Shown here piece after piece: positions 3,928 through 46,784 of a stretch of DNA of 47,887 nt (its first letter is position 1; every line of letters begins with the position of its first letter). The notes beneath the pieces were generated by a model. It ran no database searches. It was not told the DNA's origin and saw nothing but the letters and a program-made list of their open reading frames with translations. The stretch covers positions 1 to 47,887 of the forward strand of contig CAYZZT010000001.1 in the NCBI GenBank assembly GCA_964483025.1, written 5' to 3'. The stretch is from an uncultured Candidatus Saccharibacteria bacterium. Lineage in GTDB: Bacteria; Patescibacteriota; Minisyncoccia; Phycocordibacterales; CAIZIN01. The position numbers and the translations under genes were made by a program.

Positions 3928-3945
3928 ATAAATGTTTTGATCATA

Positions 3946-4077
3946 GATTCTCGCATTCGCAAGAATGACAGAAAGGAGGAAATTTATTTTTAAATTTTAA
4001 CAAAATAACCTGGATCCCCGCATTCGCGAGGACGACACAAAATATAGTCATGAATACATTCCTTATTTTGTGTCGTT
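3946..4077. repeat. MITE-like hairpin repeat cluster
   Basis: gattctcgcattcgcaagaatgacag and ctggatccccgcattcgcgaggacgacac modules plus hairpin gacacaaaata...tattttgtgtc. Same family as the loci listed below. Confidence 0.7.
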
Positions 4078-7483: not shown

Positions 7484-7548
7484 GGCTGACGGGGTTTTCT
7501 TTTTGGGGGTTTTTTGGTATAGTACTTGCAATTATCGACACCGTTTGT

Positions 7549-7707
7549 GTCATTTCCGTGAAGACGGGAATCCAGTCTGTAATTCGAGACTTGTGTCACA
7601 CATAATTTCTTGCTAGAAATTTGTGCGACTCCGTCTCAGCTCGACAGCCTGCGACCGTGGAATCTGGTACCCACCAGATTCCACCCCCGCATTCGCGAGG
7701 ATGACAG
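7549..7707. repeat. MITE-like hairpin repeat element
   Basis: Begins gtcatttccgtgaagacgggaatccagtctg and ends cccccgcattcgcgaggatgacag. Internal segment shared with 12400-12516 and 40280-40440. Confidence 0.7.
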
Positions 7708-9297: not shown

Positions 9298-10125
9298 ATG
9301 ATTCATAAATATTGTTATTTTCAGGGTGCCATTACTCAGTTTGATAAGGCTCACATATCACTAAATGATCTCGGGGTCCTTCGTGGTTATGGAGTTTTTG
9401 ATTTTTATAGGTCATACAATGGCAAACCTTTTTATTTAAAAGAGCATTATGCTCGTTTTCAAAACTCAGCTAGAAGCATTGGCCTTACTGTACCGGTTTC
9501 ATTTAAGAATTTTGAAAAAATTACTCTAGATTTATTAAAGAAAAATAAAGTAAAAGATGCAAGTTTCAGGGCTGTATTACTTGGAGGGCCGGTTCAAAAT
9601 AGTTTAGCTCCGGCCAGGCCAACTTTTTATATTCTTAATGAAGAGGCATATGCACCGACAGACGAACAAGCAAAAAATGGAGTGAGTTTAATGGTGCATG
9701 AATATCTCCGCTATATTCCAGAAGCAAAAACAACAAATTATATGGAGGCCGTGAAGATGCAGAAAGAAAAAATAAAACAAAAAGCCTATGAGATTTTGTA
9801 TGTTTTAAATGGAGAGGTTTTGGAATGTTCCACAAGCAATATTTTTATGATAAAAGGTAAGCATCTTGTAACACCAAAGAAAAATATTCTAAAAGGAATT
9901 ACGAGAAAAGTTATTTTGAAAATTGCGAAGAAGGATTTTATAATAGAGGAGAGAGATGTAGAAATTTATGAGCTTCTTTTGGCTGATGAAGTATTTATTT
10001 CTGGTACGAATAAGGAAATCCTTCCTATTGTAAAAGTTGGAAAGAAAGTTATTGGAAATGGAAAAGTGGGGGAGAAGACAAAATTATTGATGAAACTTTG
10101 GAAGGACATAACACATAACATATAA
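9298..10125 (+). CDS. class IV (fold type IV) aminotransferase, branched-chain or D-amino-acid type
   Basis: GYGVFDFYRSYNGKPFYLKEHYARF N-terminal signature. Catalytic-Lys context EAKTTNYMEAV. C-terminal ISGTNKEILPI motif. ATG 9298 preferred over the upstream alternative start. Confidence 0.8.
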   Translation: MIHKYCYFQGAITQFDKAHISLNDLGVLRGYGVFDFYRSYNGKPFYLKEHYARFQNSARSIGLTVPVSFKNFEKITLDLLKKNKVKDASFRAVLLGGPVQNSLAPARPTFYILNEEAYAPTDEQAKNGVSLMVHEYLRYIPEAKTTNYMEAVKMQKEKIKQKAYEILYVLNGEVLECSTSNIFMIKGKHLVTPKKNILKGITRKVILKIAKKDFIIEERDVEIYELLLADEVFISGTNKEILPIVKVGKKVIGNGKVGEKTKLLMKLWKDITHNI

Positions 10126-10130
10126 CTTGT

Positions 10131-10203
10131 GTCATTCCCGCGGAGGCGGGAATCCATGAATTAAATACTACAGACTGGATTCCCGCCTCCGCGGGAATGA
10201 CAG
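10131..10203. repeat. MITE-like element (two inverted hairpin modules)
   Basis: gtcattcccgcggaggcgggaatccatg ... cagactggattcccgcctccgcgggaatgacag. Confidence 0.75.
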
Positions 10204-12175: not shown

Positions 12176-12516
12176 TTCTTTGTATTTGTTTTGAATTTAA
12201 TATTTTGGATTTTGATATTGTTTCGAATTTCGAGCTTCGTGCTTCGGATTTAATACAAACTAACTTGGATCTCCGGGATTACCCACAAGTATTTTTCTGC
12301 TAAAAAATCTTCTGGGCACAACTCGCCCAAAAGTATTTTTCTGCTGAAAAATCTTTTCGTCATGCCTCAGCTCGACAGCTTCCGGCCTTGCGTTCGGGTC
12401 ACGTATAATTTCTTGTTAGAAATTTACTCGACCCCGACTCAGTCGCCTTCGCTCCTTCCGTCTTTCAATCTGATACCCATCAGATTGAACCCATCCCGAC
12501 TTCACGAGGATGACAG
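12176..12516. repeat. composite MITE-like repeat cluster
   Basis: gtttcgaatttcgagcttcgtgcttcgg module (also near 42560). ttttctgctaaaaaatcttct modules (also near 30085, 40280, 40995). Ends cccgacttcacgaggatgacag. Confidence 0.7.
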
Positions 12517-15452: not shown

Positions 15453-15598
15453 GCAGGAGTTAGGGAAGCTAATCATGGCCTATATTCTATTTTTTGACAC
15501 AAAACATAACCTTTGAATTGGTTTTCAAACTTTCGAGTTCGTGTTAAGCCATATTTTCTAGTTATTAACCACACTAATACTTGTAGAACCTTTTTCAT

Positions 15599-15650
15599 TT
15601 GACAATAGGCGGTGGGGTGGGGGCTACAATTAGGGGCATTAGAAAATAAT
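15599..15650 (+). promoter_or_regulatory. G-tract promoter-like motif, copy 1
   Basis: TTGACA 15599-15604, 20-nt spacer ataggcggtggggtgggggc, TACAAT 15625-15630, then taggggcattag. About 45 nt are conserved with 46723-46770. Confidence 0.5.
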
Positions 15651-15659
15651 ACAAAAATT

Positions 15660-16394
15660 ATGGAAAAATTTGACCATGAGAATTACAGAGATAGTCTTGC
15701 TGAGGATTTAAAAAATGTTTCAAGTCATGCTGAAAGAAAAGATGCTTTACATAAAGAAAAAGAGGGATTTAGATACGGTGAAGCCAGAGAAAAACATTTA
15801 GAAGAAGTTGAAGTATATAAAACTTTAACCGAAGAAGCTGAAAGAAAATCTGAGTTGGTGGCAAAGAGTTTTTGGAATGGTATTTTGGGCGAGGATTTTG
15901 GTGTAAGATTTATAAAACAAGGTGCATGTAGTTGCTCTCTTGCTCGTCAAGTTGATGATGAAGCAAATATAGTAGAAAACTATGAAAAAGCAAAAAAAGA
16001 AAAACCTGACAGGTGGACGCAAGAAGAATATGAAACCAAACTTGCACAAGCGCTTGATTTCAATAGGAAACATAAAAAGTTTCAGGACAAAGTTTTAGAG
16101 GAACATCTAAAGGAGATAAAAGGAGGTGTGGGTTTTGGAAAGGAAGAATATCGATTAAAATTTATTGGCGAGCTTATTTCTAAAAAAATCGGAGAAAATT
16201 ATGAGAAATTATCTTACCTTTTGGGTAATAATTTAGATGATAGTTATTTTGCAAATAATGTGAAACAAATTGTGGAGGATAAGGATCTTAGTCAAACTTG
16301 TATAAGTTATTCTGGCTCAGTAGATCCAATATATAAGGCCCTAGTAAAGAAGGCTCTTGATGAAGAAAAACAACTAAAAAAACCTTTGGTATAA
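15660..16394 (+). CDS. hypothetical protein, 244 aa, K/E-rich
   Basis: ATG 15660 chosen, because the upstream part of the ORF reads through the G-tract motif. No family recognised. Confidence 0.55.
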   Translation: MEKFDHENYRDSLAEDLKNVSSHAERKDALHKEKEGFRYGEAREKHLEEVEVYKTLTEEAERKSELVAKSFWNGILGEDFGVRFIKQGACSCSLARQVDDEANIVENYEKAKKEKPDRWTQEEYETKLAQALDFNRKHKKFQDKVLEEHLKEIKGGVGFGKEEYRLKFIGELISKKIGENYEKLSYLLGNNLDDSYFANNVKQIVEDKDLSQTCISYSGSVDPIYKALVKKALDEEKQLKKPLV

Positions 16395-16401
16395 TTTAAC
16401 T

Positions 16402-16657
16402 AATTATAAAAAAACAAAAGAGCGAGTTTCCCGGAGGGAAACTCGCTATTTTGGTTTGTGGTTTTTTCAGACTGGATTCCCGTCTTCACGGGAATGACAA
16501 TACGGAATTCTGAATTCCAGTCTGCGTCGTCTGCGTACAGTCTGCGTAAGTCTGCGGGTCGTACTCGACCATTTATACGACCTTATCCACTATCCCATAC
16601 TTTTTTGCCTCGTCGGCACTCATGAAGAAGTCGCGGTCGGCGTCTTTTTTGATTTTT
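16402..16657 (+). repeat. about 255-bp direct repeat, copy 1 (terminator hairpin + MITE + clpP 3' fragment)
   Basis: Near-identical to 17903-18154, with a handful of substitutions. Confidence 0.85.
16573..16657 (-). pseudogene. clpP 3'-terminal fragment (last ~28 codons)
   Basis: Minus-strand translation [27 protein letters not shown]-stop matches the ClpP C-terminus ([27 protein letters not shown]). Four synonymous and one non-synonymous difference. No upstream coding continuation. Confidence 0.8.
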
Positions 16658-17902: not shown

Positions 17903-18154
17903 ATTATAAAACAAAAGAGCGAGTTTCCTGAAAGGAAACTCGCTATTTTGGTTTGTGGTTTTTTCAGACTGGATTCCCGTCTTCACGGGAATGACAATAC
18001 GGAATTCTGAATTCCAGTCTGCGTCGTCTGCGTACAGTCTGCGTAAGTCTGCGGGTCGTACTCGACCATTTACACCACTTTATCCACAATCCCATACTTC
18101 TTTGCCTCGTCGGCACTCATGAAGAAGTCGCGGTCGGCGTCTTTTTCGATTTTT
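17903..18154 (+). repeat. about 255-bp direct repeat, copy 2 (overlaps the true clpP 3' end)
   Basis: See copy 1. Confidence 0.85.
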
Positions 18155-21675: not shown

Positions 21676-21822
21676 ATTTTAGGAGCTCCTTCTAAGTACT
21701 TAGTATAGCACAGAGGGGTAGAATTATGAAGTAAGAATTATGAATTAAGAATGGATTTAAAATACAATAAAATACCGCGCTGTAGGCGCCGTATTTTATT
21801 CCTAATTCTTAATTCCTAATTC

Positions 21823-22875
21823 TTAATTCTGCTCTAAGAACTTAAACACTTCCTCATTTGTGAGCATATGTTCCACATAAACTTTTGCACGAAGTGGGTC
21901 GAGGTCGGCATACATTGCTAGAAGTTGTCCTGCTTGAGATTCTACTTCTTCTTTGTTTGGCTCTAATTTTTCTTTGATTGCAATTTCTGCAAGAACGACA
22001 TTCATTTTTGCTCTTTTTTCTGCTTCACCTCTCCACTCTTTTCGTAAATCTTCTTCAGTCTTTTTAATGCTTGCTAGATAATCTTCAGGCTTCATTCCGT
22101 ATTGAGCAAGGTCACCTTTAAATTGGTTTACAAGTTTATCTTGCTCACTTTCCACAAGTACTGATGGAATTACTAGTTTTGATTTCTCAATAATTTTTTC
22201 AACAATAGCGAGTCGTACTTTTTGTTTTTCTTTTAGTTTTTTCTCATTAAGAATATTTTCTTTTAGTTTTATTTTAAAATCAGAAACATTCGCAAAATCT
22301 CCAAGAGTTTTTACAAACTCATCATTAACTTCAGGTAGCACCATATCTTTTTCATCTCCTTCTGTGTGGGGGGTACCTTGTTTGTGCATTTCTTCATGCG
22401 CACGGTGTTTACGAATTTCTTCCATTGTTTCTTCAATTTCTTTTTCTTCGACAGCTACCTCCTTTTTAGTTTTTCCTACTTCTTTTGCAATTTCTTTATA
22501 ATCGGGGAGTTCGGCTTTTGGCATTAAGGCCACTTTTACCTTAAATACTAATGGGTTTCCTTCGGCTAGTTTTACAATAGAAACATCCGGGTGGCCGATT
22601 GTGTTTAACTTGTGTTCCTCGAGGAGTTTTCCATATGTTTCGTCGATAATTATTTCTGCCCCTTCACCAAGAATGTATATTTCTCCAAATTTTTCTACGA
22701 TCATTTTTTCAGGAGCATTTCCTTTGCGAAAACCATCTAAAGTGATGTTTTTTTGTATTTCAATGAAGGCTTTTGCACGAGCCTTTTGTAATTCCTCCCA
22801 AGACACTTCCACTTCTAAAACAGCTTCCGAAGAGTCTTCTAATAGTTCTAATTTTGATGTGTATTCGTATGTCAT
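21823..22875 (-). CDS. tig: trigger factor lacking the PPIase domain
   Basis: N-terminal ribosome-binding signature GFRKGNAP and a C-terminal chaperone arm region. 350 aa. FKBP domain replaced by a short H/E-rich linker. Confidence 0.8.
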   Translation of the reverse strand: MTYEYTSKLELLEDSSEAVLEVEVSWEELQKARAKAFIEIQKNITLDGFRKGNAPEKMIVEKFGEIYILGEGAEIIIDETYGKLLEEHKLNTIGHPDVSIVKLAEGNPLVFKVKVALMPKAELPDYKEIAKEVGKTKKEVAVEEKEIEETMEEIRKHRAHEEMHKQGTPHTEGDEKDMVLPEVNDEFVKTLGDFANVSDFKIKLKENILNEKKLKEKQKVRLAIVEKIIEKSKLVIPSVLVESEQDKLVNQFKGDLAQYGMKPEDYLASIKKTEEDLRKEWRGEAEKRAKMNVVLAEIAIKEKLEPNKEEVESQAGQLLAMYADLDPLRAKVYVEHMLTNEEVFKFLEQN

Positions 22876-23026
22876 ATGGAAGCGAGTTTAGCAGAAAAAT
22901 GTTTGATAGTCTATAGTCTTTAGTTATTAGTTTGTAGTAAAAGCAAAAGAGCGAGTTTCCCGAAGGGAAACTCGCTCTTTTGGTTTGTAACTAGTTACTT
23001 GTTATATGTTATGAGTTATAAGTTCT

Positions 23027-39591: not shown

Positions 39592-39766
39592 GGTTGTACA
39601 GGTCCTTTCTTTCTGTACTTTATCACTATCTAATTTTTGGTCAACTTGGATAAATAATTCATACCTATAATAAATAACTTGTAACTGATAATCTATAACA
39701 AATAACAAGAGACTTTCCCGAAGGGAAAGTCTCTATTGTTATAAGTTATTAGTTATAGATTATTTG

Positions 39767-40189: not shown

Positions 40190-40217
40190 CCCTTTATTTT
40201 ACACAATATTCTATTTC

Positions 40218-40466
40218 TGTCATTCCCGCGAAGGCGGGAATCCATGAATTCAGATTCTGCAGACTGGATTCACAAGTATTTCTCTGCAAAAGTATTTTTT
40301 TACTAAAAAATCTTTTCCACATGCCTCAGACCGTCGTCTTCCGACCTTGCGCTCAGATACCCATCTGAGCTCACTGAGAAATCTTCTGAACACACCTCGG
40401 CTCGTCAGCCTCCGGTCTTGCGAAAACATACCCATGCTTTCTCACCTGCCTTCGCGGGAATGACAG
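40218..40466. repeat. long composite MITE-like element
   Basis: tgtcattcccgcgaaggcgggaatccatg ... cacctgccttcgcgggaatgacag. Internal modules shared with 12280-12516 and 40966-41135. Confidence 0.75.
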
Positions 40467-45468: not shown

Positions 45469-45698
45469 ATACACAAACAAGACGCTATAGCGTCAGTTGT
45501 GTGTATCTTCTATTCGTACCATAGGTAGTACATTATTAAGAGATAACAGATTATCTTTTGTAAATACACAAACAAGACGCTATAGCGTCAGTTGTGTGTA
45601 TGTATATTTTGTTTGTGTTGTCGGCTAGGATTTTTGAAAATACATTTCTTTATTTAATATATACACAAACAAGACGCTATAGCGTCAGTTGTGTGTAT
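45469..45698. repeat. three identical 38-bp palindromic repeats (R1-R3) upstream of the Cas2/PaaX-like gene
   Basis: atacacaaacaagacgctatagcgtcagttgtgtgtat at 45469-45506, 45564-45601 and 45661-45698. Unrelated spacers of 57 and 59 nt. Confidence 0.9.
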
Positions 45699-45776
45699 GT
45701 GGGTTATTGTATTAAAAAATATTCACCCATACACATATTTAAATGCATAAAAAATATAGAAGAGTATAATATTTGT

Positions 45777-46337
45777 ATGGTAAAAGTTGTTAAAAAAATC
45801 CAGAGGGGAGATATCACAAGAACTATTCTAGAAATTGCAAAAGCTACAGGATTGATAGCTACAGCACTAGTTGCTCCTAACGTATTGAGTGCTTTTGCAA
45901 AACTAGGCATCGTTGATTTACATGGGAGACAAAATGAAGTGATAAGACGGGCTAGGAATATTTTAATAAAGAATGGGTGCTTGAAGAAAAATAAGGAAGG
46001 TTTTTTATGTTTGACTGAGAAAGGACAAGAAAAGCTTGATTCCTATAGATTATCAGAGTACACGCTTTTGATTCCAAAAACTTGGGATAAAAAGTGGGGA
46101 GTTTTAATTTTTGATATTCCAGAGTATAGAAAATCTTTGAGAGATAAAATAAGAAAAGAATTAACCAAAATTCATTTTATACGTGTTCAAGATAGTGTTT
46201 GGATTTTTCCATATGACTGCGAAGAGCTTGTTGCACTTCTAAAGGCTGATTTTAAAGTAGGGGAGGATCTACAATATATGGTGGTTCATAAAATTGAAAA
46301 TGATGACAGGCTTCGCAAGGCTTTTCATTTGGCTTAA
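45777..46337 (+). CDS. Cas2-fold / PaaX-C-like protein with putative N-terminal winged helix, 186 aa
   Basis: WDKKWGVLIFDIPEYRKSLRDKIRKELTKIHFIRVQDSVWIFP matches the W-D-x-K-W...FDIPE...LR...L...GF..LQ.SVW.xP signature shared by the PaaX C-terminal domain and Cas2-like proteins. RRARNILIKNGCLKKNKEGFLCLTEKGQEKL looks like a wHTH wing. TATAAT 6 nt before the ATG. Confidence 0.7.
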   Translation: MVKVVKKIQRGDITRTILEIAKATGLIATALVAPNVLSAFAKLGIVDLHGRQNEVIRRARNILIKNGCLKKNKEGFLCLTEKGQEKLDSYRLSEYTLLIPKTWDKKWGVLIFDIPEYRKSLRDKIRKELTKIHFIRVQDSVWIFPYDCEELVALLKADFKVGEDLQYMVVHKIENDDRLRKAFHLA

Positions 46338-46398
46338 AATAAATTTTAATTTGTTTTTATTATTACATTTATTATTTAATAATATTGAACAGAGAGAC

Positions 46399-46661
46399 AT
46401 ACACAAACTTGACGCTATAGCGCCAAGTCTGTGTATGTGGCATTTTTTTATTATTATGATTATGTTTTAGATTGACGATTTTGTACAGTTGTCCTTACTT
46501 AAACACATACACAATGATGACGCTATAGCGCCAAGTCTGTGTATATAGTAGTTTTTATGATTTATTAACAGATTGATTAACCTATGTTTAGGAAAAAACA
46601 TTTTGTATTGTCTCAATTTATATATACACAATGATGACGCTATAGCGTCATCATTGTGTAT
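46399..46661. repeat. three variant 38-bp palindromic repeats (R4-R6) downstream of the Cas2/PaaX-like gene
   Basis: R4 46399-46436 atacacaaacttgacgctatagcgccaagtctgtgtat. R5 46507-46544 atacacaatgatgacgctatagcgccaagtctgtgtat. R6 46624-46661 atacacaatgatgacgctatagcgtcatcattgtgtat (perfect 16+4+16 palindrome). Spacers 70 and 79 nt. Confidence 0.9.
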
Positions 46662-46722
46662 GTATTTTTTTGCAAGAGTATTGAAATGGGGAGTAGTGGG
46701 TTTTATGCGTAGGTTCTTTGAT

Positions 46723-46770
46723 TTGACAATAGGTGGTGGGGGGGGGCTACCATTAGGGGTATTATAAATT
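46723..46770 (+). promoter_or_regulatory. G-tract promoter-like motif, copy 2
   Basis: TTGACA 46723-46728, 18-nt spacer ataggtggtggggggggc (G8 run), TACCAT 46747-46752, then taggggtattat. Confidence 0.5.
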
Positions 46771-46784
46771 AAATTAAAAATTAC

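Follow-up and report, generated by a model that had tools for sequence, protein, structure and literature searches.

Short PaaX-like proteins with a Cas2-like domain in Patescibacteria and the 38-bp palindromes, putative operators, that bracket their genes

Background

PaaX, the repressor of phenylacetate catabolism in Escherichia coli and Pseudomonas (PDB 8a39, 3l09), combines an N-terminal winged helix with a central PaaX_M domain. The E. coli PaaX operator is TGATTC(N27)GAATCA, the protein autoregulates by occupying its own promoter, and, as of a 2022 review, no PaaX-operator complex had been solved (PMC9493321). Here we analyze a stretch of DNA from an uncultured Candidatus Saccharibacteria bacterium (contig CAYZZT010000001.1; hereafter, “the window”, meaning the whole stretch of 47,887 nucleotides), in which six 38-bp palindromes bracket a gene for a 186-amino-acid (aa) protein that likewise consists of a winged helix and a PaaX_M domain. 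We consider it likely that these palindromes are operators of an autoregulating PaaX-type DNA-binding protein.

The similarity to PaaX extends to the geometry of the site: the 6-bp inverted half-sites of the PaaX operator are N27 apart, compared with the arrangement ATACAC-N26-GTGTAT here, with different half-site sequences. The initial annotation of this locus, made from the DNA letters alone, had given a spacing of about 26 nt for PaaX, which is essentially right. In other respects, the window protein departs from PaaX. It ends at residue 186 and lacks the PaaX_C domain, is not encoded next to paa genes, scores below the TIGR02277 cut-off and, together with its family, keeps the FDIPE motif of Cas2 that was lost in PaaX. 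Furthermore, the center of the palindrome is conserved and co-varies with the Cas2-like domain, sites are found on both sides of the gene, there are several paralogs per genome, and, among at least 588 loci, the family was found only in Patescibacteria assemblies.

Three other systems invite comparison. With Cas2 and VapD, the window protein shares the ferredoxin-like beta-alpha-beta-beta-alpha-beta fold, and its family shares the hallmark F/YDI..R..L..G..Q.SVW/F, including the beta1 Asp; in some database sources, members of the family carry the name Cas2. Unlike Cas2, however, the window protein is fused to a winged helix, and no cas1, array of clustered regularly interspaced short palindromic repeats (CRISPR) or other cas gene is found nearby. 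As in the repetitive extragenic palindrome (REP) systems with REP-associated tyrosine transposases (RAYT), the gene is bracketed by cognate palindromes that in some loci seem mutually inverted, each paralog has its own palindrome variant, and extra copies are present in other intergenic regions of related genomes. Unlike RAYTs, the protein is not a Y1/HUH transposase, and the palindromes lack a GTAG or CGTC tag, appear low-copy and heterogeneous, and stand in register with promoter elements. Finally, the unit of the tandem interspaced guide RNA (TIGR)-Tas systems consists of a conserved edge, 9 nt, a conserved loop and another 9 nt, with spacers that do not co-vary (PMC12045711). The palindromes described here have the same layout and a similar total length (about 36-38 nt), but TIGR-Tas was rejected as an identification: there is no Nop-domain protein, the units are 57-79 nt apart rather than contiguous, the two 9-nt segments are mutually complementary, and there is no sign of constraint at the RNA level.

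Results and discussion

Six palindromes and a short PaaX-like gene

The features of the locus are as follows (positions are those of the window).

45469 to 45506, no strand: palindrome R1, ATACAC AAACAAGAC GCTATAGC GTCAGTTGT GTGTAT; feet and center intact, 9-nt arms pairing at 5 of 9 positions
45564 to 45601, no strand: palindrome R2, same sequence as R1; two substitutions here in the close strain L181
45661 to 45698, no strand: palindrome R3, same sequence as R1; center about 98 nt 5' of the start codon; identical in the close strain L168
45764 to 45779, + strand: predicted promoter block GTATAATATTTGTATG, with the -10 box TATAAT at 45765-45770, 6 nt before the ATG at 45777
45777 to 46337, + strand: gene for the short PaaX-like protein (winged helix and Cas2-like domain), 186 aa
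46399 to 46436, no strand: palindrome R4, a putative operator variant, ATACAC AAACTTGAC GCTATAGC GCCAAGTCT GTGTAT
46507 to 46544, no strand: palindrome R5, a hybrid of the left half of R6 and the right half of R4; both feet and center intact, poor hairpin
46624 to 46671, + strand: palindrome R6, perfect (46624-46661), followed by a T7 run; terminator-like site, -18.1 kcal/mol

All six units, which stand at the places given by the initial annotation, follow the design ATACAC-N9-GCTATAGC-N9-GTGTAT, that is, two outer feet, two 9-nt inner segments and a center, and within each group of three are separated by 57-79 nt (57 and 59 nt between R1, R2 and R3). The core GACGCTATAGCG is limited to these six places in the window (12 matches over both strands, compared with 0.07 expected), the frame ATACACA-N24-TGTGTAT was matched 7 times (0.14 expected), and no further copy of the palindrome was found in the remaining 46.7 kb. 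The palindrome is thus private to this locus within the window, as had been proposed, but not beyond it: the same design is widespread, and most of its copies lie away from the gene, as discussed below.

Whereas the feet and the center are common to R4, R5 and R6, their two inner segments differ. The inner arms had been described as complementary throughout, which holds for R6 (9 of the 9 variable positions pair) and largely for R4 (7 of 9), but not for R1-R3 (5 of 9) or R5 (4 of 9). As originally noted, R4 has two mismatches, which are of the A.C type when read on the + strand and of the G.T type on the - strand. The composition of R5, too, is exactly as described; however, a crossover between such repeats can be mapped only to the invariant core, so that R5 alone is no sign of the event at a hairpin tip to which it had been attributed. 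As single-stranded DNA, R5 folds with -5.3 kcal/mol (z = -1.85), no better than shuffled sequence. Given that the asymmetric R1-R3 and R5 retain the feet and the center yet fold poorly, hairpin formation is seemingly not required. It is probable that R6, which is followed by a T7 run, doubles as the intrinsic terminator of the gene.

Close strains retain R1 and R3 unchanged. Strain L168 nearly matches the window in the gene (about 99% identity) and in the region 5' of it, but has a markedly different downstream array, in which the copy homologous to R4 is a perfect palindrome. The downstream array is a strain-variable segment. In the alignment of the two strains over 46290-46740, identity drops abruptly some 35 nt ahead of the stop codon and returns near 46737.

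The protein encoded between the palindromes matches the Pfam family PaaX_M (PF20803, “PaaX central Cas2-like domain”) over residues 101-176, with 70.1 bits against a cut-off of 24 (E = 1.8e-19). The conserved signature belongs to this central domain and not, as first assigned, to the C-terminal domain of PaaX, for which there was no Pfam match. The scores for TIGR02277 (33.8 bits, cut-off 264.55) and for Cas2 (PF09827, 20.9 bits, cut-off 23.8; TIGR01573, 21.7 bits, cut-off 24.5) fall below the thresholds, the matches to HTH_45 and Mrr_N are weak, and libraries of defense systems yielded weak Cas2 matches only. In an AlphaFold model built on a 54-sequence alignment (predicted local distance difference test score 78), helices 10-24, 29-42 and 52-65 and a beta-wing at 69-79 form the predicted winged helix, in agreement with the initial annotation, and are followed by a linker helix and a beta-alpha-beta-beta-alpha-beta domain. 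When this model was compared to known structures using Foldseek, E. coli PaaX (8a39) ranked first and Rv0674 next, and the C-terminal half matched Cas2 (5zyf, 6qxt, 2ivy). By analogy with PaaX and Cas2, the Cas2-like domain would mediate dimerization. Because the helical, ligand-binding PaaX_C domain is missing, sensing of phenylacetyl-CoA is not expected.

The arrangement is a family trait

A protein search retrieved 389 homologs, nearly all of 180-200 aa, as are nearly all of the best 150 family representatives listed. Counted as clusters at 50% identity, a profile search against 1.84 billion representatives yielded 406 with E <= 1e-30 and 2,593 with E <= 1e-10. Genomes were scanned as well, and each of the at least 588 loci detected belongs to a Patescibacteria assembly. 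The homologs place the source of the window among the Patescibacteria (Paceibacteria/Parcubacteria). Literature searches on this family found no description of it or of its palindromes. Several genomes encode two or three paralogs, which are 47-69% identical within one genome and differ in the class of the foot or the center of their palindromes, as expected for regulators that avoid cross-talk. These features fit an old diversification of regulators rather than recent transposition.

We examined the association between gene and palindrome, which the initial annotation had singled out for a comparison among homologs, in 83 loci. A palindrome of the same design lies within 400 nt of the gene in 72 of these, on both sides in 38, upstream only in 15 and downstream only in 19. 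The density of palindromes is 2.08 per kb near the gene and 0.144 per kb farther away, a 14-fold difference; those distant from the gene are mostly unrelated terminators. Across the loci, the design comprises the foot ATACAC (positions 1-6), nine variable positions and the center GCTATAGC, with GCGACCGC, GCGATCGC, CCTATAGG or ACTATAGT as minority centers. The bracketing of the gene by palindromes is a family trait in Paceibacteria. Among the first contexts that we obtained, one palindrome upstream and one downstream were present in L001 and the syntenic L004, and three and two, respectively, in L005; the usual 1+1 arrangement is thus elaborated to 3+3 in the window and to 3+2 in L005.

The gene itself stands alone, as indicated by neighbors that are unrelated between loci (311 neighbor proteins in 211 clusters) and by their apparently random orientation (47 vs 33 upstream, 44 vs 36 downstream). 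In the window, ComEC is encoded upstream of it, and the downstream neighbors code for an unknown 144-aa protein and an Fe/Mn superoxide dismutase; no paa catabolic genes adjoin the gene, and its neighbors are diverse over the 83 loci. Orthologous positions are kept, for example, that between ComEC and superoxide dismutase in the window and L004.

In L001 (5622-6178) and L003 (1263-1820), the PaaX-like gene is separated from its downstream palindrome by an inserted IS200-like element, which encodes a 151-aa Y1_Tnp and has the end hairpins CCTCGTCAGCTTGCTGCGAG and CCCCGTCAGCTTGCTGCGGGG. The sequence past the element differs between the two loci. A link of the family to this Y1 transposase, which lies beside the 88%-identical homolog P0002, was considered and rejected: it has its own hairpins and was seen at no other locus, so that it is best regarded as an unrelated insertion.

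Co-variation of protein residues and palindrome bases

That these proteins recognize their flanking palindromes is indicated by co-variation, for which some 87 non-identical proteins were each matched to a consensus half-site derived from the palindromes next to the gene. Foot bases 2-6 associate most with R51, E54, V55 and R58, whose i, i+3, i+4, i+7 spacing places them on one face of the predicted recognition helix, and with the wing residue K71; this co-variation of helix 3 with the feet also supports the assignment of the winged helix. Bases 14-16 associate with K119 and D123, which share a face of helix 1 in the Cas2-like domain, and bases 18-19 with R136 and D139 in the beta2-beta3 segment. 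For bases 7-13, there is no strong association with any protein column.

The base C6 (G on the other strand) occurs with R58 in 45 of 53 loci, and T6 with Ser, Asn or Ala; C4 occurs with E54 in 65 of 70, C15 with D123 in 33 of 38, and A15 with E123 in 16 of 18. Feet of the ATACGT class are found with F55 (4/4 loci), a residue absent from the other proteins. In the set of 72 loci from genomes, TATA centers always go with D139 (52/52), and all 13 residues other than Asp go with other centers. As an attempt to shuffle labels within clusters was defeated by single-linkage clustering, which merged nearly everything, we turned to contrasts between disjoint pairs of closest relatives. In these contrasts, made between relatives whose sites differ in the feature at issue, R58 and foot base 6 were concordant in 16 pairs and discordant in none (5 ties, p = 1.5e-5), and D139 and the center in 13 and none (8 ties, p = 1.2e-4). 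One switch involves the window itself, which has CAC feet and the protein sequence IRRAR, compared with CAT feet and INHAR in the syntenic ortholog L007. Residues E54, V55, R58, D123 and D139 of the window protein all fit the bases C4, A5, C6, C15 and T18 of its own sites.

The residue-base pairings follow the ordinary rules of major-groove recognition of duplex DNA, and the Cas2-like domain apparently reads DNA at the center of the palindrome.

Palindromes overlapping predicted promoters

The position of the upstream palindromes offers another line of evidence. The in-frame ATG of the gene (palindrome positions 37-39) belongs to the 3' foot, GTGTATG, at 24 of 57 upstream sites. A TATAAT-like hexamer (TATAAT, TATACT, TATTAT or TATAGT) occupies positions 25-30 of the gene-proximal arm, six nt before this ATG, in 11 of the 57 sites by pattern, 10 of them exact TATAAT; in the distal arm and in downstream sites, there are 0-2 exact and 3-5 pattern matches. 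A -10 box and a leaderless start inside an operator would constitute the classic layout for autorepression, and this overlap, taken with the geometry and the co-variation, makes an autoregulating PaaX-type protein the best reading.

In the clade of the window, intact palindromes are found at a distance of at least about 80 nt ahead of the gene and past its stop codon; in the window itself, counting from the start, the upstream ones are near -98, -195 and -290, and the downstream ones between about +640 and +865. What is found at the start instead is the promoter block G(C/A)GTATAATATTT..ATGG, invariant in the window, L001, L004, L005 and L168. Because its arrangement is the same as in the intact upstream palindromes of other family members, this block looks like the relic right arm of an ancestral palindrome embedded in the promoter, and the start of the window gene is predicted to be leaderless.

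Downstream sites were also considered as terminators, but T runs follow just 11 of 63 (17%), compared with 7% at random positions, and this reading of the downstream sites was rejected.

Palindromes away from the gene

When metagenomes were scanned for ATACAC-N9-GCTATAGC-N9-GTGTAT, in which the two inner segments are unconstrained, at least 120 contigs matched; the counts in this section, as well as those of orphan palindromes and arm symmetry below, are among the matches listed. Within 200 nt of a PaaX-like gene lie 24 of 127 palindromes, and the other 103 do not adjoin one. Nonetheless, no other gene adjoins the palindromes nearly as often as the PaaX-like one (18 of about 117 loci), which usually has them on either side. 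Second in frequency is uvrC, identified by its GIY-YIG, UVR and UvrC RNase H domains: in several species, the palindrome overlaps the uvrC start (L115 3165, L119 3608, L140 2894, L148 4319), with the sequence ATACAC TTAA N5 GCTATAGC N5 TTAA GTGTAT, in which the N5 segments are asymmetric. This is a candidate regulon site, and the presence of cognate palindromes at other genes such as uvrC suggests small regulons. The 101 orphan palindromes are located between tandem (59), convergent (28) or divergent (14) genes, many of them 6-50 nt past stop codons or between convergent genes.

Several other arrangements were observed. In L073 (7331-8081), two palindromes of the same design, with the center CAGCTATAGCTG, bracket a putative toxin-antitoxin pair, RelB/DinJ-like and RelE/YafQ-like, as assigned by eye from translations of open reading frames. 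Other genes stand between paired palindromes of the same sequence in L155 (4563/5508) and L127 (4140/6507); L036, L052 and L065 have a distal palindrome copy. Contigs with palindromes of this design also contain other classes of 38-bp palindromes, with the feet ATACGT, ATGCAA or ATACCT and the centers ACGACCGT, ACGATCGT, GATATATC or GCGGCCGC (L090 1963, L109 8961, L112 6228, L149 11560, L175 3612/4869/5663, L185 1629/1784, L202 11213), which may be operators of other paralogs. We also considered L150, L165, L090 and L172, which have a palindrome in common with gene-bearing loci, as empty alleles, and rejected this possibility for lack of flanking homology.

A model of autoregulation

From the geometry, the co-variation over some 87 loci and the promoter overlap, which together provide good support for the proposal of autoregulating PaaX-type operators made at the outset, we infer binding, dimer stoichiometry, repression and looping as follows. 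The short PaaX-type protein, built of the winged helix, the linker helix and the Cas2-like domain, would bind each 38-bp palindrome as a dimer on duplex DNA. Its two recognition helices, about 32 bp apart, would read the outer feet ATACAC and GTGTAT, and the Cas2-like core would lie over the dyad, reading the central GAC-GCTATAGC-GTC. In most of the family, one operator would cover the -10 box and the leaderless start and a second would lie just past the stop codon; binding to the former would block RNA polymerase, resulting in autorepression. In the clade of the window, where the site embedded in the promoter would have decayed to a half-site, control would probably need cooperativity or a DNA loop between the two clusters of sites. 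The protein lacks the PaaX_C domain, scores below the TIGR02277 cut-off and has no paa genes beside it, yet appears to work like PaaX. As it still carries the acidic motif of Cas2, the family may be an intermediate between Cas2 and PaaX.

A possible nuclease acting on its own palindromes

Several observations weigh against this model or are not accounted for by it. A repressor has no obvious need for a site after its own stop codon or for 3+3 copies, and the intact sites of the window do not overlap the core promoter. Similarly, no promoter is expected between convergent genes, where 28 of the 101 orphan palindromes lie. R1, R2 and R3 are mutually identical despite unrelated spacers. The same 38-42-mer can also recur between unrelated flanks; of five such cases, four pair a gene-adjacent site with an orphan one. 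Of the 97 distinct sites in the metagenome scan, which tests arm symmetry without bias, 41 are perfect in all nine variable pairs, and each variable position is complementary in 62-94% of sites, compared with 31-70% expected from base composition. At positions 10-12, this symmetry (62-74%, about 31% expected) has no co-varying counterpart in the protein. Such excess could result from quasipalindrome template switching, a requirement for cruciforms or undetected specificity. In addition, D113, the metal-binding Asp of Cas2 beta1, and E116, both in the FDIPE motif and invariant in the 54 aligned family sequences, are lost in PaaX 8a39 and Rv0674, and a pure dimerization domain would not need them. 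Finally, the co-variation tests are only partly corrected for phylogeny.

Many of the same observations would fit a REPtron-like unit, or site-specific nuclease, a possibility raised in the initial annotation. Here, the winged helix would set an active Cas2-like dimer over the palindrome center, where this Cas2-derived, sequence-specific nuclease or recombination factor would read about 12 bp at the dyad and nick or cleave a duplex, cruciform or hairpin substrate with D113 and E116. Repair, template switching or recombination would then copy, homogenize and disperse the palindromes, and the gene would lie between its own substrates, as a RAYT gene does between REPs. The retained acidic residues, the placement of the Cas2-like domain at the dyad by co-variation, the identity of R1-R3, the replacement of the downstream array between strains, the identical 38-42-mers and the arm symmetry beyond base reading are all in line with this scheme. 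So are half-swapped copies, namely, R5 and the downstream sites of L044, L124, L187 and L191, each of which repeats its upstream counterpart in inverted form. Among loci with sufficiently asymmetric arms, an inverted relation of the two sites fits better in 6 and a direct one in 1 (15 vs 12 overall). If true, this explanation would account for the excess symmetry, the half-swapped and identical copies and the rapid turnover of the array, and would reveal a REP/RAYT-like system working on a different fold.

Nevertheless, we regard such a nuclease as unlikely. There is no second copy of the palindrome in the rest of the window; the sites within one contig are heterogeneous, not copies of one master; and the paralogs are old, with conserved orthologous positions. 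The sites keep a fixed register with the -10 box, the ATG and, in several species, the uvrC start. The sole Y1 transposase seen belongs to the insertion described above, with its own hairpins, and the REP-type GTAG and CGTC tags are missing. Nor is there an association with viruses or plasmids: viral contigs contained neither a protein relative nor the palindrome, and a plasmid search returned one distant actinobacterial match only.

Hairpins without a tie to the gene, and RNA elements

The palindromes could also be generic intergenic hairpins, such as terminators or insulators, that lie beside the gene by chance and have no functional tie to it. The location of most palindromes in metagenomes away from any PaaX-like gene (103 of 127), the many sites shortly past stop codons or between convergent genes, and the T run of R6 are what such hairpins would be expected to show. 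We nonetheless consider this explanation very improbable. The PaaX-like gene is the commonest neighbor, the 14-fold higher density beside it points to a connection, and T runs are infrequent at downstream sites (17% against 7% at random). Above all, the explanation is already disfavored by the residue-base co-variation, which one would not expect in the absence of direct recognition.

Cas2 and VapD relatives can be ribonucleases. An RNA-level element, in which transcribed hairpins (CRISPR-like, TIGR-like, a processed array or mRNA stabilizers) are bound or cut by a Cas2-like ribonuclease domain, would accord with this ability, with three identical repeats separated by unique spacers of 57 and 59 nt, with the 6/9/8/9/6 layout that resembles the edge-spacer-loop-spacer unit of TIGR and with the full pairing of R4 on the - strand only, but is scarcely credible, given that the arm mismatches show no wobble bias (G.T 70, A.C 73, other 176), which argues against an RNA hairpin selected on one strand; that the upstream palindrome lies at or 5' of the leaderless start in many relatives and so would not be in the mRNA; that TIGR spacers A and B are free of co-variation and their units contiguous, whereas the N9 arms here are complementary and the units isolated; that the Rfam search gave no match and no CRISPR repeat family, the spacers, tested as CRISPR-like, matched none of 50,697 phage records, and no cas, cas1 or Nop-domain neighbor was found among the 83 loci; and that the residue-base pairings fit recognition of the duplex major groove.

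Other repeats in the window

Apart from the 38-bp palindromes, the window contains near-identical 47-nt hairpins, AAAACAAAAGAGCGAGTTTCCC-GNA-GGGAAACTCGCT.TTTTGGTTT, at 16411-16457, 17908-17954 and 22940-22986, with a related one at 39705-39737. These form a second, unrelated family and look like bidirectional terminators reused at several intergenic sites. A 60-130-nt intergenic block is repeated at 46722-46783 and 15598-15737 and is conserved in relatives, namely, in L004 (5729-5795) and L168 (5249-5323); its copy 5' of the gene for the unknown 144-aa protein contains a G9 run (46738-46746) that is G8 in L168, possibly a slippage-prone tract. Furthermore, short intergenic stretches of the window (for example, 3941-4074, 7545-7706, 10125-10203, 12328-12515, 21712-21837 and 40208-40421) are 75-97% similar to intergenic DNA of L150, L165, L004 and L003, contigs of related organisms. 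This similarity between sequences points to families of intergenic elements common to this lineage.

Implications

The PaaX-type family delineated here is large, and its genomes often encode several paralogs, each with its own 38-bp palindrome as the likely operator. To our knowledge, the co-variation of the palindrome center with the protein provides the first indication of the way in which PaaX-type proteins contact DNA with their Cas2-like middle domain. We know of very few recognizable regulators in Patescibacteria and of no genetics for these bacteria. The recognition map that emerges from the comparison, R58 with C6, E54 with C4, Asp or Glu at position 123 with C15 or A15, and D139 with the TATA center, would make the regulons of these proteins predictable from metagenomes.

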